From: Solirubrobacterales bacterium
Lineage (GTDB): Bacteria; Actinomycetota; Thermoleophilia; Solirubrobacterales; Solirubrobacteraceae
Direction of reading: 5' to 3'
DNA length: 64,000 nucleotides
Assembly (NCBI GenBank): GCA_013815355.1
Contig: JACDGG010000002.1
Coordinates: 23,908-87,907, forward strand
Below the pieces are notes generated by a model that worked only from the letters and a program-made list of their open reading frames with translations, made no database searches and was not told the origin of the DNA. Each line of letters begins with the position of its first letter. The stretch's first letter is position 1. The translations under genes were made by a program, and so were the position numbers. Below are positions 6,697 through 62,636 of this stretch, in pieces.

Positions 6697-7224
6697 GTGG
6701 CACACCAGCTGTGGACAATCGGACATTCCACCCACTCGTTGGAGGAGTTCGTCGGGCTGCTCTCACGCCACGAGATACGGCTGGTGTGCGATGTGCGTAC
6801 GGTGCCAAAGTCTCGACGTTACCCGCACTTCTTCGCAGACGCTCTCGCGGAGTCGCTCCCCGAGTACGGGGTTGACTATCGGCATCTCGCGGGATTGGGG
6901 GGATGGCGTCACGCTCAGCCTGATTCACCGAACGGGGCGTGGCGCAATGCGTCGTTTCGCGGGTACGCCGACTACGCGCTGAGCGCGGAGTTCGCTGACG
7001 CCCTGCTCGAGCTGTGCGAGCTGGCCATGCGAGGACGGACGGCCGTGATGTGCTCGGAGGCCCTATGGTGGCGCTGCCATCGTCGACTGATCGCCGACCG
7101 GCTCCTGACCGCTGGCTGGGAGGTGTGCCATATCGGGTCAGACGGACGCTCAAACCCACACGAGCTGGCCGACTTCGCTGTCGTGCGCTCAGACGGGATG
7201 GTGGTGTATCCGGGCGCCGCCTGA
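6697..7224 (+). CDS. DUF488 domain protein
   Basis: WTIGHSTHSLEEFVGLLSRHEIRLVCDVRTVPKSRRYPHF... is the canonical DUF488 N-terminus. Confidence 0.85.
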   Translation: MAHQLWTIGHSTHSLEEFVGLLSRHEIRLVCDVRTVPKSRRYPHFFADALAESLPEYGVDYRHLAGLGGWRHAQPDSPNGAWRNASFRGYADYALSAEFADALLELCELAMRGRTAVMCSEALWWRCHRRLIADRLLTAGWEVCHIGSDGRSNPHELADFAVVRSDGMVVYPGAA

Positions 7225-7248
7225 CTTGCGATGCTCACGAGGTAGGGC

Positions 7249-9242
7249 TCATGGTCCTTCTGATGGCCGCCGTGATGCCGGTGCCCTTCCCGGCGGCTGC
7301 GTGGGGATCTCGCGCGCGGGCGCCTTGGGGATCGGGCATGCCACTGGTTGGCCGACAGTGAGGAGTCCCGCACGGTCAGCGCCTCGTAGTAGGCGAAGTT
7401 GCGGGCCTTCTGCTCTTCGCTGAACGCGTCGCCGCGGAGGTGCATCGCCAACACGAGGTCGGCCTGCTTGACGACCTGCTTGCGATACAGGTCAAAGTAG
7501 GGGAAGTGCAGGAGCAGCGGGTACTGCTCGGGGGTGGTGGCGGCGAAGTCCCAGTGCTGGTGCTCGGTGAACCCTTCGGCTTGGGGATGGACGCCGAGCT
7601 GCTCGTCGTAGGGGATGCGCATGGCGTGCGAGGCGTCGCGCCAGGCGGCCGTCTCCTCGGTATCGACGCCGAGCTCAGCGGCACGATCGGGGTGGCGCTC
7701 GACCGCGTCTGCTGCCAAGCGCATGTTTCGCTGCGCCATGAGGTTGGTGTAGAGGTTGTTGTCGGCGACGGCGCTGTACTCGTCGGGGCCGGTGACCCCG
7801 TCGATACGAAATCCTCCGTCCATGTCGTGGTGGCCCAGTGAGCGCCACAGCCGCGCCGTTTCGACGAGTAGCTCCAGGCCGGTCTCACGTTCGAAGTCGT
7901 GATCGTCTGCGGCGGCTTGGTAGCGGCCGACGGCATCGGCGATGTCCGCGCCGACATGGAACGCCGCCGCTCCGGCTGGCCAGTACCCAGAGCATTCCTG
8001 TCCCTCGATCGTGCGCCACGGAAACGCGGCGCCGTTCAGACCCAGGAGCCTGGCACGCTCACGCGCCATCTCCAGCGTGGCGTGGCGCCAGCGCAGGGCG
8101 TCGCACGCGGCGTGCGGGGCGGTGTAGGTCAGGACGGGCAGGACGAACGTCTCGGTGTCCCAGAAGGCGTGCCCGTCATAGCCCGGGCCGGTCAGGCCCT
8201 TGGCGGCGATCGCGCGCTGCTCGCCCCTCGCGCCGGCCTGGAGCGTGTGAAACAGCGCGAAGCGCACCGCCTGCTGAAGCTCGGCGTCGCCTTCCAGCTC
8301 CACGTCTGCGCGCGCCCAGAAATCGTCGAGGTAGTCGCGCTGGCCGGCGAGCAGCCCGTCCCAGCCGGTGTGGCGCGCCTCCGCGAGTGCCGCGGAGACC
8401 TGGTCGCGCAGCGCCGCGCTCGAGCGCTGGCTCGACCACCCGTAGGCCAGCAGCTTGACCACACGCAGCCGTTGCCCGGGCTCGACGTCAGCGGTGACCG
8501 TCACGCGCGCGAGATCCTCGCTGCTCTCGGTCGCCGTCTCGATGCCGGATGGCCCCTCGACGATGTGGTCCATTCCGGCGGCCATCCGCAGCCCGCTCTT
8601 GCGCGTGACGTGAACCAGCACGGCGCGGGCGTCGTGGTCTGAGTGAAGCTCAGCGCGCAACGCCATGCCCAGCTCGGCCGCCGCCCTCGGGTCATTCTCG
8701 GCGAGAGGCATAGGCTCGTTGGCCACGAGCTCTGACTGCACGACCAGCCGCGCCGCGGCGTCCAGCGGCTCGACTTCATAGGACACGGCGGCCACCGCCC
8801 GCTGCACCAGAGAGACCACGCGCACCGAAGAGACCCGGACCCGCTTGCCTACCGGTGAGCGCCACTCGGCGCGGCGTCGCAGCACTCCGGCGCGGAAGTC
8901 CAGGATCCGCTCGTGGCTTTCCAGCTGACCGAAGCGCACATCGAAGGGCTCGTCATCGACCAGCAGGCGAATGATCTTGCCGTTGGTGACGTTGACCGCC
9001 GTCTGGTCCGCCTCGGGGTAGCCGTAGCCGGCCTCCGCGTAAGGCAGCGGACGCTCCTCGTAGAAGCCGTTGAGGTATGTGCCCGGCAGGCCCGGCGGCT
9101 CGCCCTCATCCAGATTGCCACGGAGCCCGATGTGCCCGTTTGCCAGTGCGAACACCGACCCGGCCTGGTCGAGCACGTCCAGGTCCAGCTCGGTCTCGCG
9201 GAGCGCCCACGGCTCCACGGCAAACGCCGGATGGGAGATCAC
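7249..9242 (-). pseudogene. GH65 disaccharide (kojibiose/trehalose/maltose-type) phosphorylase, internally deleted and frameshifted
   Basis: GH65 N-terminal and catalytic regions are continuous from 9242 to about 7350 (...FAYYEALTVRDSSLSA), then the frame turns into Arg-rich nonsense. The family C-terminal tail (PVACPIPKAPAREIPTQPPGRAP...*) sits at 7249-7347 in another frame. Roughly 130 codons are missing. Confidence 0.75.
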
Positions 9243-25389: not shown

Positions 25390-26025
25390 TTAGATGAGCG
25401 CCAACTGCGTCTTTAGCTTCGTGCGGGCGTCATGCAACGTCTTATAGATCGCCCCGGGAGTTGTGTCGAGCTCGATCGCCAGCATTGCCGGCGAGTCGCC
25501 GTTGATCGCGATCGCGATCACAACGACCCGCTGGCGTTGCGTCAGCTGTCCGACGATCAGGTCGGTGACCGTCCTCAACAGCTTGCGGAGTTCAACGAGC
25601 TCCGGCGGAGAGCATCCGATGGCTGCCGGCTCTAGTTCGGGCGTGGTCTCGGCCGGCGCGAGCTGGTCGTGCCCCAGGCGGCGGCGGATGCTGACCGGCG
25701 CTTCGAGCTGGGCGAACCTGCGAGCCCAGGTCCAGAACTGACTGTCACCGCGATAGTCATCGAGCTTGCGCAACAGCGTCATGAGCGCGTCGCTGGCGGC
25801 CTGCACGGCGAGATCGTCCAGGTCGCTCCTGGAAAGCTCCGGTATGTGCCTTGCGCGCTTATGGATCTCGAATCTCGCCTCGCGGCGCAGACGCTCGTGA
25901 AGCTCTGCGATGGCGCAGCGACGCACCGGCTCGACCCCGTGCAGACGAGTTACCCAGGCTCGCGACTCGCCATCCAGCGTACGCCCTGACACGCTGGGGC
26001 ACTCGCGCAGCAGCTGCGGCGTCAC
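25390..26025 (-). CDS. ECF-like sigma-70 family RNA polymerase sigma factor (paralogue 1)
   Basis: Region 2 (DDLAVQAASDALMTLLRKLDDYRGDSQFWTWARRFAQLE) and region 4 (LTQRQRVVVIAIAINGDSPAMLAIELDTTPGAIYKTLHDARTKLK). Start set at the GTG preceded by GGGAG, and GTG 26034 is also possible. The track ORF extends to 26325. Confidence 0.75.
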   Translation of the reverse strand: MTPQLLRECPSVSGRTLDGESRAWVTRLHGVEPVRRCAIAELHERLRREARFEIHKRARHIPELSRSDLDDLAVQAASDALMTLLRKLDDYRGDSQFWTWARRFAQLEAPVSIRRRLGHDQLAPAETTPELEPAAIGCSPPELVELRKLLRTVTDLIVGQLTQRQRVVVIAIAINGDSPAMLAIELDTTPGAIYKTLHDARTKLKTQLALI

Positions 26026-26378
26026 CTGCGCCACTCCCGTGGCTGGGACGCGCTGGAAGGTCGTGTTCGGGATCGCCTGGACACCGTCCGCGACGAAACC
26101 GTGTGTCGCGGAGCCCGGCTTGTGCGGTCGAGTCGCATGCTGCTCCAGACGTTGGGATGCCGGTCGGTCAGGGACATCACCGGGGTCTCGGGCGACGCAA
26201 AAAGAGGAACTCCCGCTGAGAATACAGACCTCGCACTCCGGAAACCTTCCTGCGAAGCGATCGTCAGCGTACGAACAAAAACAGGAGGTCCCAGGTGCCC
26301 GATCCGCGCACGGCGGCCGTTCCAAGCTCTAGCTGTCGAGACGGGGTTGACGCTCGTGGACGCCGCGAGCGTCAGGGC

Positions 26379-27137
26379 TCACTCTTCGTCAGCAGGTTCT
26401 TCTCCCGCCAGCTGTCGAGAGCCGCTGCGCTCGTGCAACTTTCGCAGCTCCTCGGGCGGCTGTCCGAGCAGCAGCCACCGCGATCGTGGTAGCGAGCGAA
26501 TCCGGCCTTGATCGGCGAGCTGCCGCACAGCCAGGCTCACAGACGGGCGGCGGGCACCCACCACGGCGCCGAGCAGGTCGTGCGTGAGGCGGAAGTCGAG
26601 CCGCACGCCATCCGCGGTTACGGTACCCCAGCGGTCGCCAAAGTGCCACAGCACCAACAGGAGCCGCTCGTCGACGCGGCGAAGGTGACAAACCGCCAGG
26701 TGGAACGCCAGCCAGTGCGCGCGCAGCATCACTCGCCGGGAGATTGCCGCCGGGATCTCTGGCCACCTGGTCACTTGCTCGCAGAATGCGCGGCCGAGCA
26801 CAGCTGCCTGCACCGGCTGGACCACCTTCCAGTCGACCTCGGTGGCAACCGATGGTTCGGGGCCGACCCGCAGCCATGGCTGCAGCACGTCGCCTCGGCC
26901 GAGAAGCTCGGCGCAGGTGTGGCCCGCCACCGTGACATGGCGCGTAAGCAGGCCATCGATGAGCAGCAGTCCCAGGTTTGCGACCTGGTCGAAATCGTCT
27001 GGACCAACTGCCCATGCTCCGCGCGGATAGCTCGCCACATCGACCACGACGTGCTCCCGCGCGATCAGGAGCTCCTCGTCGCTGAGATCCTCGGCTAGGT
27101 CTGGATCGCGATCCAGAATCGAAACGACGCTAGGCAC
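26379..27137 (-). CDS. Crp/Fnr-family transcriptional regulator
   Basis: LDRDPDLAEDL N-terminus, a cNMP-binding-like barrel and a C-terminal HTH (RLTHDLLGAVVGARRPSVSLAVRQLADQG). Start set at GTG 27137, which follows GGAGAGGAG. Confidence 0.8.
   Translation of the reverse strand: MPSVVSILDRDPDLAEDLSDEELLIAREHVVVDVASYPRGAWAVGPDDFDQVANLGLLLIDGLLTRHVTVAGHTCAELLGRGDVLQPWLRVGPEPSVATEVDWKVVQPVQAAVLGRAFCEQVTRWPEIPAAISRRVMLRAHWLAFHLAVCHLRRVDERLLLVLWHFGDRWGTVTADGVRLDFRLTHDLLGAVVGARRPSVSLAVRQLADQGRIRSLPRSRWLLLGQPPEELRKLHERSGSRQLAGEEPADEE
27100..27117. promoter_or_regulatory. 18-bp perfect palindrome TCTGGATCGCGATCCAGA
   Basis: Read directly. Lies in the first codons of the Crp-like gene, abutting a -10-only copy of the recurrent motif (GAAACGACGCTAGGC, 27121-27135, plus strand). 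Confidence 0.35.
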
Positions 27138-27504
27138 TGCTCTCCTCTCCGGGTGGGCCGCGTAAAGTGCGGACGATCCTTTCACACCCGCAGACTCGGT
27201 CCTACAAGGCCGCAAGCCACCGTCAGTACACGAACAATTCCAGACCGCAACCTACGACCCGGTTCGTTATGTCCGTAGCACGCTCGAGCACAACCGGCGC
27301 GCGAGTGAGCGTGGCTGTTTCGTAGCGACGCCGACGCTTGGGCGTCATGTGAGCTCGTCCAGGGACATCCTCGGTCCCGGGCACCTAGTAGGCGTAACGT
27401 TGAGCGGGTGGCAAGCGATCGGTTGAGCGTGGTGCTGAGGGCCGTGGCAAATACCGATTGGGAACGGCGCCGGCTCGCCGGTCGACCGGGTATGCGCGGC
27501 CGCG

Positions 27505-28119
27505 GTGGCGCTGCTCTCGCTGCGGGGGGCGGGTCTCTCGCTGATCGTGGAGGGTGAGCTGCGCGGCACCGCCGGGGTATCCGAGCCCGGTATCGCGGTG
27601 GTGCAGGAGCTGCAGCTCACGCTGGGCGAAGGTCCGTGTGTGGATGCCTGGGCGAGCAGGGCAGCGGTGTTGGAGCCTGACCTGGCCGATCCCGCGGTGG
27701 TGCGCTGGCCCGCGTTTGCCCAGGCCGGCGTGGGCGCCGGCGTGCTGGCGGTGTTCGCCTTTCCGCTGGCTCTCGGGGCGATCCGGATCGGGGTGCTGGT
27801 GCTCTACCGCGATCGTCGGGGTTTGCTCAGCGCGGATGAGCTGGCCGACGGGCTGGTGCTGGCCCACGTTGCCACGCACATGGTTCTCGGCCTGCAGGCC
27901 GGGGCTCCGGCGGATACCTTGCACGAGCTGTTGGCGAAGGAGCCCCCGCACTGGGCGGAGATCCATCAGGCGACGGGCATGGTCTCCGTCCAGCTCGAGG
28001 CCCCTCTGGATGAGGCGTTCGTGCGCCTGCGCGCCCACGCGTTCGCTCACGATCTCCCGTTGCGCGACGTGGCGAGCGACGTGGTCGCGGGCCACCTGCG
28101 CCTGGAAGGTTCGGCCTGA
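27505..28119 (+). CDS. GAF-ANTAR RNA-binding regulator (short N-terminus)
   Basis: GAF core with LGEGPCVDAW. ANTAR helix pattern EIHQATGMVSVQLEAPLDEAFVRLRAHAFAHDLPLRDVA. Confidence 0.8.
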   Translation: MALLSLRGAGLSLIVEGELRGTAGVSEPGIAVVQELQLTLGEGPCVDAWASRAAVLEPDLADPAVVRWPAFAQAGVGAGVLAVFAFPLALGAIRIGVLVLYRDRRGLLSADELADGLVLAHVATHMVLGLQAGAPADTLHELLAKEPPHWAEIHQATGMVSVQLEAPLDEAFVRLRAHAFAHDLPLRDVASDVVAGHLRLEGSA

Positions 28120-28165
28120 CCCGTGACCGCTCACGTCATAATGGCTACGGGATCGAGGTGAAAGC

Positions 28166-28906
28166 ATGACACGAGAGCAGCGCATAGTGGAGACGTTCGT
28201 CGAGCTCGCCAACACGATGGTTGACGACTTCGACGTGGTCGAGTTCCTGCACCGGCTGACGGAGCGTTGCGTGGAGCTATTGGACTGCGCCGAGGCAGGG
28301 TTGCTGCTCGCGGACGCCGGAGGTGTCCTGCGGGTGATGGCCTCCTCGAGCGAGCGCTCCGACGCGCTTGAGCTGCTGCAGTCACAGAACGGGGAGGGTC
28401 CCTGCTGGGAGTGCTATCACCGCGGTAGAGCCGTGTTCAGCGAGGATCTCACGGCTGATGGGGATCGTTGGCCGACGTTCGCGCCCGTGGCCTCCGAGAT
28501 GGGGTTCTGTTCGGTGCACGCGGTCCCGATGCGGGTACGCGGCGAGACCGTCGGGACGCTGAACCTGTTTCGCGCCGCTCCCGGGCGAATCGCCGAGCAA
28601 GACATGCCACTCGCGCAGGGCATGGCCGACATCGCCGCGATCGCGCTGCTGCAGGAGCGCTCCGTGCGCGAGTCGCGCGGCGTCGTCGAGCAGCTCCAGG
28701 GCGCGCTCTCGAGCCGGGTGATCATCGAGCAGGCCAAGGGCGTGCTCGCCGAGCGCACTCACATCGGCGTTGACGCCGCGTTCTCAAGGCTTCGCGCACA
28801 CGCCCGGGAGCACCACCGTCGCCTGAGCGACATCGCCCACGAGCTCATCGACGGCCGCCTGGACGCCGCTGCCCTCGCCGACCTGACGACAGACCGCATG
28901 GGCTGA
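28166..28906 (+). CDS. GAF-ANTAR RNA-binding regulator
   Basis: GAF core with GEGPCWECY. ANTAR pattern IIEQAKGVLAERTHIGVDAAFSRLRAHAREHHRRLSDIA. Confidence 0.85.
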   Translation: MTREQRIVETFVELANTMVDDFDVVEFLHRLTERCVELLDCAEAGLLLADAGGVLRVMASSSERSDALELLQSQNGEGPCWECYHRGRAVFSEDLTADGDRWPTFAPVASEMGFCSVHAVPMRVRGETVGTLNLFRAAPGRIAEQDMPLAQGMADIAAIALLQERSVRESRGVVEQLQGALSSRVIIEQAKGVLAERTHIGVDAAFSRLRAHAREHHRRLSDIAHELIDGRLDAAALADLTTDRMG

Positions 28907-30060
28907 TGACGAGGTCGCTGTCGGGGTACACGCTGAGGCTCCGCCGCTTCGACCCGGAGTCGGGCAAGGGGCCCTACTGGCAGGAGTTCAAGGTCGAGCT
29001 TGAGGGTCACCGTTCGGTGCTCGACGCGATCCTCAAGCTGCGCGACGAGGTCGACGGCTCGATCGGGATCCGCTGCTCCTGCCGTCAGGCGATCTGCGGC
29101 TCCTGCGGCGTGAGGATCAACGACAAGCCGGGGCTGGCGTGTCACACCCACCTCGAGCGGGCGGCCCAGGCCGCCTCGGAGGGGAGCCGCGTCATCCAGG
29201 TCGAGCCGATGGGGAACATGCCGGTGATCAAGGACCTGATCGTGGACATGGACGCGGTGCACTGGAAGAAGATCCGACGCGTGACGCCGTGGCTGATCAA
29301 CAAGCAGCCTGTCCCCGAGCGTGAGTACATCGTCTCGCACGAGAGCATGGTCGACGTCACGCAGTCGATGGGCTGTATCCAGTGCGGCGCGTGCGTCTCA
29401 GACTGCCTGTCGATGGAGGTCGATCCGGAGTTCATCGGTCCGGCCCAGCTCGCCAAGGCATACCGCTTCGTCGGCGATCCGCGCGACGCACGGCAGTATG
29501 AGCGGCTGAAGGACCTCGCCGAGGATCCGCACGGCATCTATGACTGCACCCACTGCTGGATGTGCATTGACGCCTGCCCCAAGGACGTCGCGCCGATGAG
29601 CCAGATCATGCGCCTGCGCCGTCTCGCGGGCTCTGAGCACCAGATCGAGGACCGCAACAATGGGCACCGCCACGAGCACGCGTTCACCGAGAACATCGCT
29701 CGCAATGGGCTGCTGCACGAGGCCGACCTGCTGTCGGACTCCTACGGCGGCAAGCTCAGCCCGCGCGCCGTCCCCGTCCTGCTGGGCTCGCTGCCGGTGA
29801 TCCTCAGAGCGCTGATGCGACGCAAGATCACCCTCGGCCACGCACTCCTGCACCCCTATCGACGGCGCTATAAGGACCTGCGCCAGCTATTTGAGTCGAT
29901 CGAGCGCCGGGAGCGGCGCTACGAGCTGAACCTCTACGTCAGCGGCTACGACGGCGCGGAGCCCGCACAGGCCGCCGGCAACGGCCCGGCGATGGTCGCC
30001 ACCGGCACCAGCGGCGTGGGCGCCGGTCAAGCCCCGCGCGAGGAAGGAGAGGACATATGA
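28906..30060 (+). CDS. SdhB/FrdB-type iron-sulfur protein with a C-terminal extension of about 130 aa
   Basis: 2Fe-2S motif [13 protein letters not shown]...LAC, cluster motifs [11 protein letters not shown] and [12 protein letters not shown], then an extra segment with a hydrophobic stretch ([16 protein letters not shown]). Start overlaps the ANTAR gene stop. Confidence 0.8.
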
Positions 30061-30968
30061 GGGTCGCCTACTGGCCCGGCTGCGTCAGCCGCGGCTTCAC
30101 CCCGGAGCTGCATGGCTCGATGGCCAAGGTCGCGCCGCTGCTCGACATCGAGCTGGTCGAGATGGACCGCGCCGCGTGCTGCGGCGCCGGAGTGATCGCC
30201 GAGCACAACCAGGAGCTCGCGGACACGCTCAACGCCCGCACGTTCGCGCTCGCCCAGCAGACCGACGGCGAGCTGATGATGAACATCTGCTCGACCTGTC
30301 AAGGAGCGCAGACCGAGTGTCAGCAGCGCCTGGACGCCAACGACGCCTACCGCGACCACGTCAACGAGACGCTCGCCAGCGAGGGCCTGCGCTACGAGCG
30401 TGGCCTGACGAACAAGAACTTCCTCTGGCTGCTGGTCGAGGAGATCGGCCTGGCCGCGCTTCAGGCCAAGGTCACGCGACCGCTCAGCAACCTCAGGGTC
30501 GGCCCGTTCTACGGCTGTTACATCGTGCGTCCGATGGACCAGCTGGGAATCGACGACGACCACCCGCGCCACCGCTACCTGCAGTGGGTGATCGAGGCGC
30601 TCGGCGGCACCGTCGTGGACTACGCCGGCGTGTACAAGTGCTGCGGCTTTCCGATCATCACGATGAACCGCGAGGCCTCGCTGCGCCAGGCCGGCCGCCA
30701 CCTCGGCGATGCGCTCGACGCCGACGCCGACTGCCTCGTCACGCCCTGCCCACTGTGCCACCTCAACCTCGACCTGCAGCAGCCGCTGGCCGAGAAGGTC
30801 ATCGGCCGCGAGCTCGGGATGCCGGTGCTCCACCTGCCCCAGCTGGTCGGGCTCGCACTCGGCCTGGAACCCCGGCAGCTCGGCATGAGCAAGCACGTCG
30901 TGCGCCCGGCATCGGTGATCGACTGGAGCGCCGCGGTCGTCGGTGCGAGGGCGGACGCCCAAGCGTAA
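30057..30968 (+). CDS. CCG-domain protein (HdrB / type-E SdhE-like)
   Basis: Two Cys-rich CCG repeats (AACCGAG...CSTCQ and YKCCGFP...[10 protein letters not shown]). Overlaps the previous gene by 4 nt. Confidence 0.8.
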
Positions 30969-30994
30969 GAACGTGGGGTGAAACGACGCTAGAG
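30965..30994 (+). promoter_or_regulatory. Recurrent promoter-like motif instance GTAAGAAC-N15-GCTAGAG
   Basis: The TAA stop of the CCG gene lies inside the GTAAGAAC element. Followed by GGAGG and GTG 31018. Confidence 0.55.
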
Positions 30995-31017
30995 AGGCAC
31001 CTATATCGGAGGCCCAA

Positions 31018-31314
31018 GTGTCAGAAGACCCCAGCAGCGACATCGGTAGCGCTCGCAGCATCGATCCCGAGCGCGGTGCGTTCGACCCCCCTGATCACCC
31101 GCCGTTGCGCGATAGCGAGACCAACCCGCGCGGCGTCCGTCACATCGACGAGACGGCCCAGGACGACATGGCGGTCGCAGACCGTCCGCGCTACCAGGCC
31201 GCCCAGCGCCGTCGCTCTGGCATGATCGCCTCAGCGATCGGACGCTTGAAGAACAAGGCGAACCGTAGGGCTGCGCCGTCTCGCTGCGCCCCCGATGATC
31301 CCGAGGTCCCGTAG
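31018..31314 (+). CDS. Small low-complexity/disordered protein (98 aa)
   Basis: GGAGG lies 6 nt before the GTG. Acidic N-terminal half and basic C-terminal half. No family recognised. Confidence 0.5.
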   Translation: MSEDPSSDIGSARSIDPERGAFDPPDHPPLRDSETNPRGVRHIDETAQDDMAVADRPRYQAAQRRRSGMIASAIGRLKNKANRRAAPSRCAPDDPEVP

Positions 31315-31321
31315 CAGGGAC

Positions 31322-32299
31322 ATGGATGGCACTCCCGTACCGGCAGACCTCGATGACACTGACGCCCCTGGGCTGAGACGCCGGTTCGAGGTTGAGCCGG
31401 CCGCGCCGTTTCGGCTCGAGCTGACGGCGTGGGCGCTGCGACGTCGCGCTCACAACGAAGTAGACCGCTGGGACGGGCACATCTATTCGCGCGTGTTGCT
31501 GCTCGGCGACGAGGCGGTGGCGCTCTCGGTGACCCAGAGCGGTCCGCGAGACGCGGCGCGTCTTGCGGTCGCACTGGCGGGCGGACCCATCGATCGGCGC
31601 TGCGAGGCGCTTGCACGCGGCACGCTGGACAAGCTCCTGGGTCTGGAGGTCGACCTATCCGGGTTCGCGGCGATGGCGGCGCGGGACCCGGTGCTCGAGG
31701 AGCTGGCCGCGCGTATGCGAGGGTTCAAGCCGCCGCGCTTCCCGACCGTCTTTGAGGCGCTCGTGAATGCCGTCGCCTGCCAGCAGCTCTCGATCACCGT
31801 CGGGGTCCATCTGCTCAATCGCCTCGCCGCCGCTCACGGCCGGGCGGTGTCAGGGGTGCCCGGTGGCGCCAGTGCGTTCCCGGGTCCGCAGGAGCTCTCG
31901 GGCGTGGCGCCGGAGGAGCTCAAGCTCCTGGGGTTCAGCTTGACGAAGGCGCGTACGATCATCGGCGCCGCCCAAGCGATCGTCGCGGGCGAACTTGACC
32001 TCGAGGGCCTGGAGCTCCTTGACGACGATGTGGCGATCGGGCGGCTGATGGGCCTGTACGGCGTGGGGCGTTGGACCGCGGAGTACGTGATGCTCCGCGG
32101 CCTGGGCCGGCTGCACATCTTCCCCGGAGACGACGTCGGCGCCCGCAACAAGCTTGAGCGTTTCCTCGACATCGAAAGCAAACTCGACTACGCCGGGGTG
32201 GCGCAGGTACTCGCGCGCTGGCGCCCCTACGCCGGGGTCATCTACCTGCACCTGCTGCTCGACTCGCTGTCCGAAGCCGGCCTCGTTGCCGAGGCATGA
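31322..32299 (+). CDS. DNA-3-methyladenine glycosylase II (AlkA, HhH-GPD family)
   Basis: FEALVNAVACQQLS and the HhH LYGVGRWTAEYVMLRGLGRLHIFPGDDVG. ATG 31295 is an alternative start. Confidence 0.8.
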   Translation: MDGTPVPADLDDTDAPGLRRRFEVEPAAPFRLELTAWALRRRAHNEVDRWDGHIYSRVLLLGDEAVALSVTQSGPRDAARLAVALAGGPIDRRCEALARGTLDKLLGLEVDLSGFAAMAARDPVLEELAARMRGFKPPRFPTVFEALVNAVACQQLSITVGVHLLNRLAAAHGRAVSGVPGGASAFPGPQELSGVAPEELKLLGFSLTKARTIIGAAQAIVAGELDLEGLELLDDDVAIGRLMGLYGVGRWTAEYVMLRGLGRLHIFPGDDVGARNKLERFLDIESKLDYAGVAQVLARWRPYAGVIYLHLLLDSLSEAGLVAEA

Positions 32300-32368
32300 A
32301 CGACGGCCCGGACCGGCCATCGGGCTCGACGCGGTCGGCTGCCGTGCCGGCGTCCTAACCACGGTAGG

Positions 32369-32382
32369 TCACTGATCAGTGA
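32369..32382. promoter_or_regulatory. 14-bp perfect palindrome TCACTGATCAGTGA upstream of the SulP gene
   Basis: Read directly. Lies 13 nt before GTG 32395. Confidence 0.35.
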
Positions 32383-32394
32383 TTAGGATGTGAT

Positions 32395-34059
32395 GTGCAA
32401 GCTCGTCTGATCCCGTCGACGTTGCGTGGCTACCAGGCGTCGTGGTTGGGGTCCGACGTGTTGGCCGGTCTGGCGCTCGTCGCTATCGCGGTGCCTGGGG
32501 AGATGGCGACAGCCCGCCTGGTGAACGTCCCGGCGGTTGCCGGTCTCTATGCGTTCATCGCCGGGTCGCTGGCGTTTGCCGTGCTGGGCCGCAGCCCCCA
32601 GATGTCAGTCGGGGCCGACTCCACGATCGCGCCCGTCCTCGCAGCCGCCGTCGCGAGCGTCGCGGCGCTCGGTACGCCGCGCTACCTCGAGCTCGTCTCG
32701 TTCCTCGCCCTCATGACCGGGGCGCTCCTCGTCGCGGTGGGCCTGTTGCGGTTGGGGTGGATCTCCGAGTTCCTCTCGTTGCCGGTGATCACCGGCGTCC
32801 TGGCCGGGATCGCGGTCGAGATCGTGGTCCGCCAGCTCCCTTCGATCCTCGGGTTGGCGGGCGGAGGGACGACGACCGCGGGTCGGGTGCAGAAGGTCGC
32901 CGAGGAGATCGGCCACCTCAACGGCTGGTCCTTGGGGATCGCTGTGGCCGTGTTCGTCGTGGTCGTGGTGGCCGAGCGAGTCGATCGCCGGATCCCCGGG
33001 GCGCTGATCGGCTTGGTCGCGTCGATCGTGGCAGTCGCCGCTTTCGGTCTGAAGTCTCGTGGGGTCATGGTGCTCGGCGCGGTCCATGGTGGCCTGCCGC
33101 CCTTCGGTGTGCCCTCGGCGTCCTGGGCCGACGTTCGCCGCCTGATCGGCCCGGCGCTGACCGTCGCGTTCATCTGCGTGGCGCAGACGGCGGCGACCGT
33201 GCGCGCGTCGAATGCGGACGCGCCGAGCACCGATGATTTCAACCGCGATCTGATGGCGGTGGGAGCGGGAAGCCTTCTCGCCGGCGTGAGCGGATCGTTC
33301 GCCGTTAACTCCAGTCCGCCGCGTACCGAGGTCGTGACGGCCTCGGGCGGACGGTCACAGCTGACAAGCATCGTCGCCGCGCTCGTCGTACTGGGCGTGG
33401 TCCTGTTGGCAACCGGCCTGCTGAAGGACCTGCCGCAGGCCACGCTCGGAGCGATCCTCCTCTACGTCGCCACGAGACTGTTCCGGGTAGGTGACCTGCG
33501 CTCGATTCTGCGCTTCGATCGCCTCGAGTTCGCACTGGCAGTCATCGCCCTGCTAGTCGTGTCGCTCATTGGAATCGAGCAGGGAGTCGTCGTGGCGATA
33601 CTGCTCTGCCTAGCAGACCGGACCCGCCGAGCCGCGCGACCCCAGGATGTGATCCTCGGCCGCGAACCCGGCACCGACCACTGGATTCCGCCCGACGTCG
33701 GACGCCCGACCGAGCAGATCCCCGGTGTAGTGGTGTACCTGATCTACGGGCCGCTCTGGTATGGCAACGCCGACCACATCCGATCGAGGATCCGCGAGAT
33801 CATCGACTCCGCGGTCCACCCGGTGCACGCCATCGTGCTGGACGCCAACGGAATGTCCGACATCGACTACACCGCAGCGCAGACGCTCGCCGCGCTCGCG
33901 ACCGAGCTCGAGCAACAGGACGTTACGACCGGTATCGCACGGTCCTCACACCTCGTCCACCACGACCTCAAGCACAGCGGGCTCCTCGAGATCATTGGTC
34001 CGGACCACCTTTTCGCCACCGTTGAAGAGGCAATCGACGCCCTGGCCAAAGAAATCTGA
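32395..34059 (+). CDS. SulP-family anion transporter with C-terminal STAS domain
   Basis: 554 aa. Polytopic core followed by a STAS-like tail (VVVYLIYGPLWYGNADHIRSRI...VLDANGMSDIDYTAAQTL). Confidence 0.9.
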   Translation: MQARLIPSTLRGYQASWLGSDVLAGLALVAIAVPGEMATARLVNVPAVAGLYAFIAGSLAFAVLGRSPQMSVGADSTIAPVLAAAVASVAALGTPRYLELVSFLALMTGALLVAVGLLRLGWISEFLSLPVITGVLAGIAVEIVVRQLPSILGLAGGGTTTAGRVQKVAEEIGHLNGWSLGIAVAVFVVVVVAERVDRRIPGALIGLVASIVAVAAFGLKSRGVMVLGAVHGGLPPFGVPSASWADVRRLIGPALTVAFICVAQTAATVRASNADAPSTDDFNRDLMAVGAGSLLAGVSGSFAVNSSPPRTEVVTASGGRSQLTSIVAALVVLGVVLLATGLLKDLPQATLGAILLYVATRLFRVGDLRSILRFDRLEFALAVIALLVVSLIGIEQGVVVAILLCLADRTRRAARPQDVILGREPGTDHWIPPDVGRPTEQIPGVVVYLIYGPLWYGNADHIRSRIREIIDSAVHPVHAIVLDANGMSDIDYTAAQTLAALATELEQQDVTTGIARSSHLVHHDLKHSGLLEIIGPDHLFATVEEAIDALAKEI

Positions 34060-41322: not shown

Positions 41323-41861
41323 CTTTAGATTCGAGGCCCTGCTTATCCATCACCGGGGCGGGCGTCGCCGTGCTGGTGCCCGCCCCGGGGGCTGCGTGGG
41401 AGCTTCGCGTTCCGGGGATCGCGATCACACACACGAGCGGCTGCTCGGGGTCGACTGCGACGCTCTTGCTGTGGTGGGTGATCTGCAGCGTCGAGCCCTG
41501 AATCAGCGAGTAGGTCGCGTGCTGTCCTGGAGGTCGGTGAGATCCATCAGCCCCGACTCGCAGAGGTAGTGGTAGGCCAGTTCGAGATGACCCACCTCGG
41601 CGGCCAGGACGGCCTGTGTGCAGGCCGAGAGCGATGAGTCACGGACGGTCAGTGCCTCGTAGTAGGCGAAGTCGCGGGCCTTTTCCTCCTCACTGAACGC
41701 ATCGCCGCGCAGATACAACGCGAGCACGAGGTCCGCCTGCTTGACCACCTGCTTGCGATACAGGTCGTAGTAGGCGAAGTGCAGCAGCAGCGGATACTGC
41801 TCGGGGGTGGTCGCGCGGAAGTCCCAGACCGCGTGCTCGGTGAACCCCTCGGCCTGAGGGC
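41313..41861 (-). pseudogene. Second GH65 phosphorylase remnant (mid-catalytic segment plus C-terminal tail, frameshifted)
   Basis: PQAEGFTEHAVWDF...YYEALTVRDSSLSACTQAVLAAEVGHLELAYHYLCESGLMDLTDLQDST, then a frame change to ATYSLIQGSTLQITHHSKSVAVDPEQPLV.... Lacks the first 545 codons or so. Confidence 0.75.
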
Positions 41862-42157
41862 ACCGCGCCGGCATGCCGCGTTGCCACAACCTCCCGATCC
41901 TCTATGCCGGCGACGAAGTCGACTGCGGCGAAGCGTCCGACTCGACCCGCCACCGACCTGCTCGGAAAGCGGTGCAGGCCCGGATCGACCGGTAGCGCGC
42001 GCAGCCACGCCCGGTGATCGCCCAGCGCCTATCCCCAACGCACGCCGACCTGACGCAGCACCAAAAGCTCCTGCTCGTCCAGGCCGGCAACCGTCGAGGC
42101 CCGGCCCGACGTCACTCAGCGCCACGGGAGGACCAGGATCAAGCCGCGGACCTTGGA

Positions 42158-56556: not shown

Positions 56557-57211
56557 ATCGCCTTTCCTGTTGGTGTTGATCCTCCGCGGCTCGGTCGGCG
56601 AGGCGCTGTTTAAGCTTGCATCGGGCGTCGTGGAGCGTCTTGTAGAGAGCTCCCGGCGTCGAGTCCAGCCGCTCCGCGAGCTCCTTCGCCGCCACGTCGT
56701 TGACAGCCATGGCGATCAGGACCTCACGCTGGTGGGAGCTCAGATCATGCGCAATCAGATGACCGATCGTGCGGGCGAGCTCACTCGCCTCGCTGAGATC
56801 TTGCGGGTCGTCCCCATCGCCGACACGCTCAACAGGCCACTGCTCGCCATCGGTTGGTGTCTCGCGGGTATGCCCCAAGCGCCGTCGGATCTCGCCCGGC
56901 ACCTCGAGCTGAGCAAAACGACGCGCCCAGGTGGTGAACAGCGCATCGCCGCGGAACTGGTCAAGCTTTCCCAGGATCGCCATCAGCGCATCATCTGCGG
57001 CCTGCAGCGCGAGCTCGTCGAGATCGCGACCTGAAGGGTGCGCCAATCCCGCGGTTCGCCGCCGAACCTCGAAGCGAGCCTCACTCAGCAGAACTGCGTG
57101 CAGCCTTCGGATGGCCGCCTCACGCACCAAGCCCTCGGAGCGCAGCTGCTCGAGCCACCTGCGCGACTGCGGATCAAGCCTGCGTCCCACGGCTGGAGTG
57201 GGCACGCTCAT
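56543..57211 (-). CDS. ECF-like sigma-70 family RNA polymerase sigma factor (paralogue 2)
   Basis: Region 2 (DELALQAADDALMAILGKLDQFRGDALFTTWARRFAQLE) and region 4 (LSSHQREVLIAMAVNDVAAKELAERLDSTPGALYKTLHDARCKLK). Start set at ATG 57211. The track ORF extends to 57418. Confidence 0.75.
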   Translation of the reverse strand: MSVPTPAVGRRLDPQSRRWLEQLRSEGLVREAAIRRLHAVLLSEARFEVRRRTAGLAHPSGRDLDELALQAADDALMAILGKLDQFRGDALFTTWARRFAQLEVPGEIRRRLGHTRETPTDGEQWPVERVGDGDDPQDLSEASELARTIGHLIAHDLSSHQREVLIAMAVNDVAAKELAERLDSTPGALYKTLHDARCKLKQRLADRAAEDQHQQERRFARV

Positions 57212-57467
57212 CGCAGGCCCAACAGGCGACGCCCCAGCCCGGCGGAGTGCCTGTGCGCCACCCGGCCAGGTGGATGCCCTGATGGCCTCGATATGGTCGG
57301 CGCATGGGAACGCAACCGGCGAACCGTCGCGTCGCTGGTGCTGGACCGATATCTCGGTGTCGTTGCGAGCGGGGCCGTGGTGCTCATTTGCTGCCTCCGG
57401 ACCGTCGAGGAATGCCATTTACACACTCGTACTGTAGATAAGCTATCACGTCCGCCAGCAACGAGCT

Positions 57468-60313: not shown

Positions 60314-61792
60314 ATGAGCACCACGACTTCGAGCAGCGTCGATATACCATCGGATTCTCGGCGCCGTTCGGTCGGCTCGCCGAACCCGACCACCCAGGTC
60401 GAGAGGCTCGCGCGGTTCGTTGCCGACTCGCGCTGGGAGGACATCTCCGATGCGGCCCGTGAGCAGCTGAAGCTCCGCGTCCTTGACTCGCTGGGCTGCG
60501 CGCTCGGCGCGCTGGGCGCCGAGGTGCCCGCGATGGTGCGTGCGCAGGTCCACGAGTTCGGTGGTGCGCCCCTGGCCACGCTGATCGGCGGGGGAAAGAG
60601 CGCACCCGATCGCACGGCTCTCTACAACGGCGCGCTCGTGCGCTACCTGGACTTCAACGATTCCTATCTCGCGCCCGGGGAGACATGCCACCCAAGCGAC
60701 AATCTCGCGGCGGTGCTCGCCGCTAGCGAGTACGCCGGTACGAACGGCCGCACGCTATTGACCGCGCTCGCGGTCGCCTATCAGGTGCAGAATCGTCTCA
60801 GCGAGGTTGCGCCGGTGCGCGCCAAGGGGTTTGACCACACGACGCAGGGAGCCTACGCGGTGGCCGCCGGGGTGGCGCGCGCACCCGGACTTGACGAGCA
60901 GCGGATCGCGAACGCGGTCGCGATCGCCGGGACGTCCCTGAACGCGTTGCGCGTGACCCGCACCGGCGAACTGTCGCACTGGAAGGGCCTCGCCTATCCG
61001 GCAACCGCAGCTGGTGCGACGCAGGCGGCGTTCCTCGCGAGGCTCGGCGTCACTGGCCCGCGCGAAGTGTTCGAGGGCAACAAGGGCTTCATCGAGGCGA
61101 TCGCGGGCCCGTTTGAGATCGACTGGGCCCGGGAGGATCTCGAGTCTGTACGGCGCACGATCCTCAAGCGCTATGACGCCGAGGTTCACTCCCAATCGGC
61201 GATCGAAGCATTGCTCGAGCTGCGCTCCAAGCACGATCTGAACGCGAGCGACGTCGAGCGCATCGAGCTCGACACGTTTCAGGTCGCCTACGACATCATC
61301 GGCGGCGGCGAGGAGGGCGAGAAGCACTCAATCGCCACCAAGGAGGAGGCCGACCACTCACTGCCCTACCTACTCGCGGTAGCGATGATCGACGGCCAGG
61401 TACTGCCCGAGCAGTATCTCACGGAGCGGATCGTCGCTGAGGACGTTCAGGGGCTCTTGGGTCGCGTGGAGGTGCGCCCCGATGGGGAGTTCTCACGACG
61501 CTTCCCGGCTGAGCACAGCGCCCGTGTGCGGCTGTACCTGCGCGACGGGCGCACGCTCGAGCGTGAGCAGCATGACTACGAAGGCTTTCACACGCGGCCG
61601 ATGAGCTGGGACACCGTGGCCGCAAAGTTCGACCGGCTCGCAGGCGCGCACATCGAGTCCGGGCTTCGCGCCCGGATCCAAGACGCGGTGAGCAACCTCG
61701 ACGAGCTGGAAGTCCAGGAGCTCACGGCGCTGCTCGCCGGCACGACGCAAGCCGATCTGGACCCCGCACTGAGACGAAGGAGACAAAGATGA
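60314..61792 (+). CDS. MmgE/PrpD-family protein (2-methylcitrate dehydratase-like)
   Basis: 492 aa. LDSLGCALGA, CHPSDN, FDHTTQG and the C-terminal domain are typical of the family. Confidence 0.85.
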   Translation: MSTTTSSSVDIPSDSRRRSVGSPNPTTQVERLARFVADSRWEDISDAAREQLKLRVLDSLGCALGALGAEVPAMVRAQVHEFGGAPLATLIGGGKSAPDRTALYNGALVRYLDFNDSYLAPGETCHPSDNLAAVLAASEYAGTNGRTLLTALAVAYQVQNRLSEVAPVRAKGFDHTTQGAYAVAAGVARAPGLDEQRIANAVAIAGTSLNALRVTRTGELSHWKGLAYPATAAGATQAAFLARLGVTGPREVFEGNKGFIEAIAGPFEIDWAREDLESVRRTILKRYDAEVHSQSAIEALLELRSKHDLNASDVERIELDTFQVAYDIIGGGEEGEKHSIATKEEADHSLPYLLAVAMIDGQVLPEQYLTERIVAEDVQGLLGRVEVRPDGEFSRRFPAEHSARVRLYLRDGRTLEREQHDYEGFHTRPMSWDTVAAKFDRLAGAHIESGLRARIQDAVSNLDELEVQELTALLAGTTQADLDPALRRRRQR

Positions 61793-62636
61793 CACCCGAC
61801 ACGCTAACCGCAACCGACGAGCTGGCATTCTCGTTCCTGCGCGCCAACCACCGCCCGTCAAAGCCGCGGACACGCGGCGTCACCGAGATCCGCGGCCCCT
61901 ACTACTCCGTGATGGGACCGCGCTACCTCAGGGACGTGCTCGAGACGATGGGCGAGCACGTCGACGCGCTGAAGTTCGCGGGCGGCTCCTTCACGCTGAT
62001 ACCCGAGCAGACATTGCGAGAGATCATCAAGATCGCCCACGAGCACGATGTGCTCGTCTCCACAGGCGGCTTCATCGAGCATGTCCTCACGCAAGGCCCC
62101 GACGCGGTCGAGCAGTACATCGACGAGGTCGCCCGATTGGGCTTCGACATACTCGAGGTCTCCGCCGGCTTTATCAGCATCCCCACTGACGACATGCTGC
62201 GCCTGGTCGAGCGCGTCCAGCGCACCGGACTGAAGGCAAAGCCAGAGGTCGGCATCCAGTTCGGCGCCGGCGGCGCCACCACCCCCAAGAGCTCGAGCAG
62301 GAGGGCACACGCGATGTCGGCTACGCGATCGACCTCGCACGCCGATGCCTTGACGCCGGCGCGTACATGATCATGATCGAGTCTGAGGGCATCACCGAGG
62401 AGGTCACGAGCTGGCGCACCGACGTGGTCGCAACGATCGCTCGCGAGCTTGGCCTTCAGAACGTCATGTTCGAGGCCGCTGACCCCGAGGTGTTCGGCTG
62501 GTACGTAAAGAACTATGGGCCAGAGGTCAACCTGTTCGTCGACCACTCACAGATCGTGCAGCTCGAGTGCCTGCGGCGCGGACTCTGGGGCACCAAGAGC
62601 CTCTGGGGCCGTGTCCTCACATACCCGGGAACGTGA
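61789..62636 (+). pseudogene. Phosphosulfolactate synthase (ComA)-like gene with a -1 frameshift in a C5 run
   Basis: ORF 61789..62370 carries the family N-terminus (RPSKPRTRGVTEIRGPYY...LKFAGGSF...). The family sequence ELEQEGTRDVGYAIDLARRCLDAGAYMIMIESEGI continues in the next frame from 62289 and runs to 62636. The break is at CCCCC 62282-62286. Confidence 0.75.

Follow-up and report, generated by a model that had tools for sequence, protein, structure and literature searches.

The 64,000-nucleotide stretch of contig JACDGG010000002.1 analyzed here (the window) is high-GC DNA (~67% GC) from a Solirubrobacterales bacterium and represents 64 kb out of a 93-kb contig. It carries two overlapping genes, sdhB2 and sdhE2, which encode relatives of the iron-sulfur and CCG-domain subunits of a complex II enzyme and are not accompanied by a gene for the flavoprotein SdhA. 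The pair probably encodes a functional accessory version of that half of a type-E-like complex II which handles electron transfer and docking, borrowing an SdhA that is encoded elsewhere. A heme-free, type-E-like succinate:quinone oxidoreductase (SQR) appears to be the typical enzyme of the Solirubrobacterales, and the pair would copy two of its subunits, with SdhB2 acting as the iron-sulfur electron wire and SdhE2 as the CCG membrane-docking subunit. Lacking an accompanying flavoprotein gene, the pair is expected to assemble with a foreign SdhA, most likely that of a housekeeping sdhA-sdhB-sdhE operon, to give an isoenzyme. Electrons would then pass from FAD through the [2Fe-2S], [4Fe-4S] and second [4Fe-4S] clusters to the SdhE clusters or quinone, or in the reverse direction. 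If SdhA is indeed shared with the housekeeping SdhB and SdhE, bacterial complex II isoenzymes could be formed by swapping the electron-exit half, which would allow a simple retuning of quinone coupling or of direction (succinate oxidation versus fumarate reduction) under stress.

The sdhB2-sdhE2 pair and its relatives

The pair is the distal half of four co-directional open reading frames (ORFs) on the + strand, which encode GAF-ANTAR regulator 1 (ANTAR1, 27505–28119), GAF-ANTAR regulator 2 (ANTAR2, 28166–28906), SdhB2 (28906–30060) and SdhE2 (30057–30968). This order and both gene overlaps had been given in a preliminary description of the sequence and were recovered here. At the ANTAR2/sdhB2 junction the TGA and ATG share 1 nt (TGATG at 28904–28908), and sdhB2 and sdhE2 overlap by 4 nt (ATGA at 30057–30060), with GGAAGGAGAGG immediately 5' of the overlap. 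The ANTAR2-sdhB2 stop/start overlap is also kept in the relative L006, whose SdhB is 94% identical. Because the overlap is present and leaves no gap, the pair and the ANTAR cassette are likely to be co-transcribed, and in this lineage sdhB2-sdhE2 would be read from the ANTAR-tandem transcript with translational coupling. A promoter scan found no sigma-70-like promoter, and terminator-like sites were not above shuffles. Two co-directional genes downstream (31018–32299, +), encoding a 98-aa conserved hypothetical protein and an AlkA-like HhH-GPD glycosylase (Pfam HhH-GPD and AlkA_N), possibly share the transcript with the pair. The GC content at third codon positions (GC3) of sdhB2 (0.90) and sdhE2 (0.93) is the highest in the window. 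A tblastn search of the 64 kb with two SdhA proteins from related operons as queries gave no match (best E 0.05), in agreement with the earlier observation that no SdhA-like flavoprotein is encoded there.

The sdhB2 gene product (384 aa) is a long succinate dehydrogenase/fumarate reductase Fe-S subunit of the type E style, as identified by Pfam (Fer2_3 and a 4Fe-4S dicluster domain), by NCBIfam, which places it within the succinate dehydrogenase/fumarate reductase Fe-S subfamilies, and by alignment with E. coli FrdB and SdhB. The best NCBIfam matches are two "long" models of 317–330 positions that reach residue 337 in the tail. All three cluster motifs claimed for this protein align with both E. 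coli proteins: the [2Fe-2S] cysteines at 59/64/67/79, a CxxCxxCxxxC motif at 157/160/163/167 and a CxxCxxCxxxCP motif at 214/217/220/224. The counterparts of the third motif (residues 214–225) are CTFVGYCSEVCP in FrdB and CHSIMNCVSVCP in SdhB, and Cys217 is an extra cysteine at a position occupied by Val or Ile in the classical enzymes. An additional cysteine here characterizes the type E enzymes, whose [3Fe-4S] cluster is exchanged for a second [4Fe-4S] (PMC2754724), and SdhB2 has the complete type E pattern of three motifs with the extra cysteine in the third. The preliminary description also pointed to a C-terminal tail with a hydrophobic stretch. The tail is present, but it is kept to ~residue 347 in all 55 aligned relatives, sdhA-operon copies among them, and is therefore a family feature that is not peculiar to the window copy; the hydrophobic stretch (residues 286–304) has a Kyte-Doolittle maximum of 1.40, which is below transmembrane level. 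The C-terminal half of SdhB also shows a weak resemblance to HdrC.

The sdhE2 gene encodes a 303-aa CCG-domain (HdrB-like) protein in which Pfam finds the two CCG repeats that had been predicted (96.7 bits). NCBIfam analysis returned MFR_anch_SdhE (187 bits) and HdrB (171 bits), both under the equivalog cut-offs (345 for HdrB), and residues 1–282 match HdrB of the structure 5ODC (5ODC_B) with an E-value of 8e-44. Both CCG cysteine sets are kept (9/41/42/78/81 and 154/195/196/231/234). With two CXnCCGXmCXXC motifs and no transmembrane helix (hydropathy maximum 1.27), the protein has the features by which type E SdhE is recognized. As neither SdhB2 nor SdhE2 reaches transmembrane hydrophobicity, a monotopic, heme-free anchor fits the pair, and SdhE2 is presumed to be the monotopic membrane-docking subunit on the quinone side. 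SdhE2 is 75–86% identical to the CCG copies found inside sdhA operons.

Relatives of the pair were sampled as 175 loci with a long SdhB (referred to by L numbers), obtained from exact-protein look-ups, a species-representative genome scan (the best 80 of ~570 genome hits) and a metagenome scan. The presence of sdhA was scored within up to 10 kb on each side of sdhB, and the loci were split by SdhB identity to the window copy into a canonical class (<77%, spanning 62–76%) and an orphan class (>=77%, n=20, window included). In the canonical class sdhA immediately precedes sdhB in 143 of the 145 informative loci, and a CCG gene is located downstream in 148 of the 150 loci with enough downstream sequence. 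This operon context identifies the family as the Fe-S subunit of a three-gene sdhA-sdhB-sdhE enzyme. The neighbours of the canonical operons are housekeeping genes (M50 peptidase, asd/ask, recR and dnaX). Both loci lacking sdhA encode SdhB-YceI fusions of 533–539 aa (L137 4475–6094 and L157 1932–3533), in which an SdhB part that is 68–72% identical is followed by a C-terminal YceI-like domain; neither sdhA nor a CCG gene is nearby, making this a third arrangement. YceI-like proteins bind polyisoprenoids and quinones. Among plasmids, no relative exceeded 60% identity.

The orphan class shows a different organization, with a CCG gene in 20/20 loci and sdhA in 0/20. The description of the pair as a type-E-style SdhB with an SdhE/HdrB-like protein and no flavoprotein gene thus holds for the window and for every member of the clade. 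Neighbour-joining trees of both proteins recovered the orphan loci as monophyletic. With an outgroup the clade was recovered in 200/200 bootstraps and is nested inside canonical diversity. The orphan-to-canonical distance is 28%, compared with 24% among canonical copies. Pairwise ratios of nonsynonymous to synonymous substitution (dN/dS) are 0.20–0.33 for SdhB2 and 0.12–0.26 for SdhE2, with dS values of up to 0.66, which shows that the clade evolves under purifying selection. Seven positions in SdhB and one in SdhE discriminate the orphan from the canonical clade, including F218W within the third cluster motif of SdhB. The N-terminal/C-terminal divergence ratio of SdhB (2.2 versus 1.8) indicates that the N-terminal domain, the part that contacts SdhA in solved complexes, is not more relaxed than in canonical copies, and this canonical pattern of divergence suggests that SdhB2 still needs an SdhA-type partner. 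Full-length ORFs are present in all 20 orphan loci with the exception of one sdhE2 allele, in which the same 1-nt deletion splits the gene into two ORFs in two independent assemblies (L171 11179–11785 and L173 1311–2212). The sdhE2 gene of L172 (1879–2781) is intact, and the SdhB2 protein is identical in these three loci. The recurrence of the deletion in independent assemblies suggests that the pair is dispensable.

Eight canonical loci (L062, L063, L071, L075, L082, L107, L108 and L112) also encode a classical sdhA-sdhB pair (~30% identical) ~2–5 kb upstream of the type-E-like sdhA-sdhB-CCG operon. Given this position directly upstream, several Solirubrobacterales encode two distinct complex II enzymes next to each other.

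The pair can be compared with four known systems. It shares with the type E SQR of Sulfolobus and Acidianus (SdhABEF) the extra cysteine in the CxxCxxCxxxCP motif of SdhB with the expected second [4Fe-4S], and an SdhE with two CCG motifs, no transmembrane helices and no heme anchor (PMC2754724). It differs in being bacterial (Thermoleophilia), in the conserved SdhB tail of ~110 aa and in having no adjacent SdhA; in addition, gene order in the canonical loci L001–L003 shows no conserved fourth (SdhF-like) gene after the CCG gene. The SdhABE methylmenaquinol:fumarate reductase of Wolinella and Campylobacter has the same sdhA-sdhB-sdhE order as the canonical relatives (PMC2680327), and MFR_anch_SdhE is the top NCBIfam match of the CCG protein. 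However, the scores are far under the equivalog cut-offs (187 versus 500 and 131 versus 600), the orphan pair lacks SdhA, and the canonical SdhA here begins with MPRHDVLIIGAG, without an N-terminal twin-arginine (RR) motif, which means that it is probably cytoplasmic and not periplasmic. Synechocystis sp. PCC 6803 offers a precedent for a shared SdhA, since it encodes one SdhA (slr1233), two SdhB proteins (sll1625 and sll0823) whose genes are unlinked and lie apart from sdhA, and an HdrB-like anchor (slr0201). In contrast to Synechocystis, SdhB and the anchor are duplicated jointly here, are translationally coupled and lie in a stress island, and the order Solirubrobacterales has a complete canonical operon type. 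The thiol:fumarate reductase subunit TfrB and HdrBC likewise join an SdhB-type ferredoxin module to an HdrB-type CCG module, and SdhE2 matches the 5ODC HdrB over its full length. The two modules are separate polypeptides here, though, the relatives belong to sdhA operons of aerobic actinobacteria, and HdrA and thiol cofactor genes are lacking; the window annotation contains no HdrA or HdrC gene, and the HdrB score of 171 bits stands against a cut-off of 345.

The GAF-ANTAR cassette upstream of the pair

The two genes preceding sdhB2 were both described initially as GAF-ANTAR regulators. This is clear for ANTAR2 (246 aa), the second gene of the tandem, which has strong Pfam matches to GAF_2 (69 bits), GAF (61 bits) and ANTAR (PF03861; 61.2 bits against a cut-off of 27.3). 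ANTAR1, which is 204 aa as now read, scores just below the Pfam cut-offs for GAF_2 (26.4 versus 28.6 bits) and ANTAR (27.1 versus 27.3 bits), but it matches the local ANTAR hidden Markov model (HMM) with an E-value of 6e-24 and its orthologues are called as ANTAR proteins. A GAF sensor domain is therefore accompanied by an ANTAR domain in both proteins, although ANTAR1 is weak and is a shortened, frameshifted version of a 236-aa family. DNA alignment with the 92% identical orthologue of L006 places an extra 1 nt near 27455–27460, and three-frame translation shows the conserved N-terminus VASDRLSVVLRAVAN in another frame from a GTG start at 27408, leaving an ancestral coding remnant at 27408–27504 (+). 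This N-terminus is common to the three 236-aa orthologues, that of Conexibacter woesei included, and the first ~32 residues of the family are lost in the window copy. Either a genuine mutation or an error of assembly may account for the frameshift.

ANTAR1 and ANTAR2 are diverged paralogues with 31% identity. ANTAR1 is 76–92% identical to its orthologues in L175, L177 and L006, and homologues of ANTAR2 number in the thousands at 74–95% identity within the Solirubrobacterales, including C. woesei. The tandem occurs without sdhB in L175 9217–10747 (C. woesei DSM 14684, CP001854) and L177 9244–10777 (a 183-kb metagenome contig), where a 236-aa weak GAF-ANTAR gene is followed by a gene of ~250 aa, at 76–84% identity to the window proteins. 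The genes downstream are unrelated, and cyclic di-GMP and two-component signalling genes surround the tandem. Its presence in C. woesei and L177 with no sdhB downstream marks the GAF-ANTAR tandem as a cassette in its own right that is widely conserved, and its distribution is brought to notice here. Among the loci compared, the tandem is joined to sdhB2 only in the window and in L006, and the orphan pairs at 77–87% identity have no GAF-ANTAR tandem. The tandem-sdhB2 junction thus turns out, on this comparison, to be recent and lineage-specific, and the pair appears to have landed directly behind the independent tandem in this lineage. The linkage of ANTAR genes and pair proposed in the preliminary description consequently does not extend to most relatives.

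The C-terminal ANTAR domain and N-terminal sensor domain of these proteins are shared with the known ANTAR regulators AmiR, EutV, NasR and PdtaR and with the actinobacterial GAF-ANTAR proteins; GAF-ANTAR is the commonest ANTAR architecture in actinobacteria. The window differs from these in having a tandem of two diverged GAF-ANTAR paralogues and in that a dual-hairpin target was not found in the scans. The location of a regulator inside its putative target operon, initially regarded as unusual, has counterparts in AmiR, which is encoded within the ami operon, and in EutV, encoded at the eut locus.

A census of ANTAR genes was obtained by running the ANTAR HMM on six-frame translations. ANTAR-domain genes were identified in 7/20 orphan loci, in four arrangements, and in 0/155 canonical loci (2.06 Mb in total). 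They include REC-ANTAR (PdtaR-like) or ANTAR-only genes beside or <=4 kb from pairs that lack the tandem: L009 12081–12764 (−), L091 2764–3444 (−), L010 5527–6348 (−) and L171 8178–8582 (−). Because ANTAR genes recur near orphan pairs and are never found near canonical operons, some regulatory tie between ANTAR proteins and the orphan pair is possible.

An RNA target of these regulators was sought with patterns for paired hexaloop (A1/G4) hairpins, requiring stems of >=4 bp or >=3 bp, in the window and 16 leader regions, and with Rfam, which was applied to the complete window with gathering thresholds and to 26000–32500 with E up to 10. No hairpin pair was found in the sdhB2/ANTAR1 leaders (0 versus 0.15–0.74 expected), the window as a whole had no excess over shuffles (3 versus 5.4 expected), and Rfam gave nothing relevant, in scans of low sensitivity given that published actinobacterial targets score only 10–18 bits. 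Alignment of the upstream regions of seven orphan pairs revealed no conserved leader beyond close relatives, 8/9-mers shared among 11 upstream regions were not above the null, and the 178-aa ORF that precedes sdhB2 in L009 shows no conservation.

Probable partnership of the pair with SdhA

The main rival to the accessory-isoform reading is that sdhB2-sdhE2 are the sole SdhB and SdhE of the lineage, with sdhA relocated as in cyanobacteria, in which case the pair would belong to the housekeeping enzyme and no extra isoform would exist. The nesting of the clade within canonical diversity at a distance little above that among canonical copies, the GC3 values of the two genes and the unlinked sdh genes of Synechocystis all agree with such a split operon. 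The genomes of L009 and L010, assemblies JAICYC01 and CAWICS01, also show no canonical operon among the best 80 of ~570 hits, a depth at which this is uninformative. However, canonical operons keep their M50 peptidase, asd/ask, recR and dnaX neighbours, whereas the contexts of orphan pairs vary and consist of accessory island genes, and a frameshifted sdhE2 in two independent assemblies is hard to square with the only enzyme for this step of the tricarboxylic acid cycle; a split operon is accordingly considered unlikely. Decay is scarcely credible as an explanation. A dead leftover of a rearranged sdh operon would account for the absence of sdhA from the window, for the frameshifted sdhE2 of one population and for the other damaged genes in the window (the ANTAR1 frameshift, a GH65 fragment and a split ComA), and the preliminary description had noted that a pair normally adjacent to sdhA might be only such a rearranged fragment. 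Relatives in the <77% class do adjoin sdhA, yet the orphan clade is monophyletic and persists across contexts, its ORFs are full length apart from the one allele, all 13 + 12 cysteines are retained, and dN/dS of 0.12–0.33 across lineages largely refutes decay. A further alternative, judged quite improbable, is that the pair works independently of SdhA and serves another flavoprotein or acts alone in an HdrCB-like manner, for example by linking the ferredoxin-reductase-type flavoprotein of the island to the quinone pool or by disulfide reduction. The absence of sdhA within 10 kb of any orphan pair is consistent with this, as are the weakly HdrC-like half of SdhB, a CCG protein as near to HdrB as to SdhE by NCBIfam and fully alignable with HdrB, the recurrence of ferredoxin-reductase-like and NDH-2 genes in the island (the gene order in L004 is ferredoxin reductase-transketolase-sdhB2), and the SdhB-YceI fusions, which demonstrate re-use of the SdhB module in Solirubrobacterales. 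On the other hand, no flavoprotein is consistently adjacent, the CCG protein remains close to its sdhA-operon counterparts, and a new partner should have left its imprint on the SdhA-facing domain, which evolves canonically with nearly no clade-specific substitutions.

The adjacency to the ANTAR genes might itself have been selected, with the GAF-ANTAR proteins (REC-ANTAR in other lineages) binding the sdhB2-sdhE2 mRNA. The restriction of ANTAR genes to orphan loci argues for this, together with the coupling of sdhB2 translation to ANTAR2 through an overlap kept in the 94% relative; in the literature, mycobacterial ANTAR proteins repress metabolic mRNAs at the level of translation and cause a shift in redox metabolism. 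Such a regulon is nevertheless no more than a tentative possibility, given that leaders and window lack an excess of hairpins, that neither an Rfam match nor a conserved leader was found, that the tandem is kept at 76–84% identity in genomes where sdhB is not adjacent, that no ANTAR gene lies less than 10 kb away from the pairs in L004, L008, L169 and L174, and that ANTAR1 is frameshifted in the window. A combination in which an SdhA-free module links an island flavoprotein (e.g. the ferredoxin-reductase-like protein) to quinone or disulfide under ANTAR control through a non-canonical RNA target is highly doubtful. The ANTAR genes near orphan pairs weigh against the accessory-isoform reading to some extent, as they hint at a tie closer than accidental juxtaposition. 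The AlphaFold2 model of SdhB2, built from the 55-sequence alignment, has a mean predicted local distance difference test score (pLDDT) of 50 and is unusable.

Genes surrounding the orphan pairs

The orphan pairs are found in at least seven different immediate contexts, in each case among the same set of island genes. The immediate neighbour is the GAF-ANTAR tandem in the window and L006, a transketolase gene in L004, a GH65 phosphorylase gene in L169, an acetyltransferase gene in L008 and L174, a permease gene in L009, a sugar transporter gene in L010 and a divergent Fpg glycosylase gene in L171. Beyond these neighbours the gene set is always the same, with genes for a sigma-like protein, a Crp-like regulator, NDH-2, a ferredoxin-reductase-like flavoprotein, DUF488, an AlkA-like glycosylase, small conserved hypothetical proteins, pentose-phosphate enzymes, GH65/beta-phosphoglucomutase and Usp. 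To these the window adds ETF-QO, a HisKA_3/REC-GerE two-component pair, hemerythrin, cytochrome oxidase, cytochrome bd, OsmC and rhodanese. The gene content of the region suggests a stress and respiratory-flexibility island subject to frequent rearrangement, and it defines a conserved island of this kind in the Solirubrobacterales, which are very abundant in soil but have received little study. Co-expression of the pair with the island is probable, including its Usp, NDH-2, cytochrome bd, ETF-QO, pentose-phosphate and trehalose genes, a DosR-like two-component system and the sigma-like gene. The earlier suggestion that the pair feeds electrons to the nearby ETF-QO or SQR-like protein was not borne out by the comparison, as neither gene is consistently adjacent across the orphan loci.

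The most constant neighbour of the orphan pairs, in eight contexts, is the sigma-like protein (25390–26325, −), which contains sigma-70 region 4 only and has a weak Pfam match to Sigma70_r4_2. Homologues with 57–88% identity were detected by tblastn in L004, L006, L009, L010, L089, L169/170 and L171; the canonical loci gave no hit. The window also encodes a 45% identical paralogue of this protein at 56597–57373 (−). The Crp-like regulator (26379–27215, −; Pfam HTH_Crp_2) is divergent from the ANTAR genes and has homologues with 69–93% identity in three other orphan-pair loci (L006, L009 and L010). Homologues of the 98-aa hypothetical protein and AlkA-like glycosylase encoded downstream of sdhE2 are present in L004, L006, L008, L169 and L172, differently arranged.

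The remainder of the window (839–24864 and 34219–64000) encodes two Usp proteins, GH65 with beta-phosphoglucomutase, transketolase, transaldolase, G6PD, 6PGD and NDH-2, along with the ETF-QO, HisKA_3/REC-GerE, hemerythrin, cytochrome oxidase, cytochrome bd, OsmC and rhodanese genes named above and two DUF488 genes. The full-length GH65 gene is located at 6972–9242. A second, 128-aa fragment at 41503–41889 (−) covers GH65 catalytic-domain positions 241–358 only and is probably a pseudogene remnant. The ComA-like (phosphosulfolactate synthase) gene at 61789–62636 (+) is broken into two ORFs, which overlap and match profile positions 1–145 and 161–242, the result of a frameshift or sequencing error.

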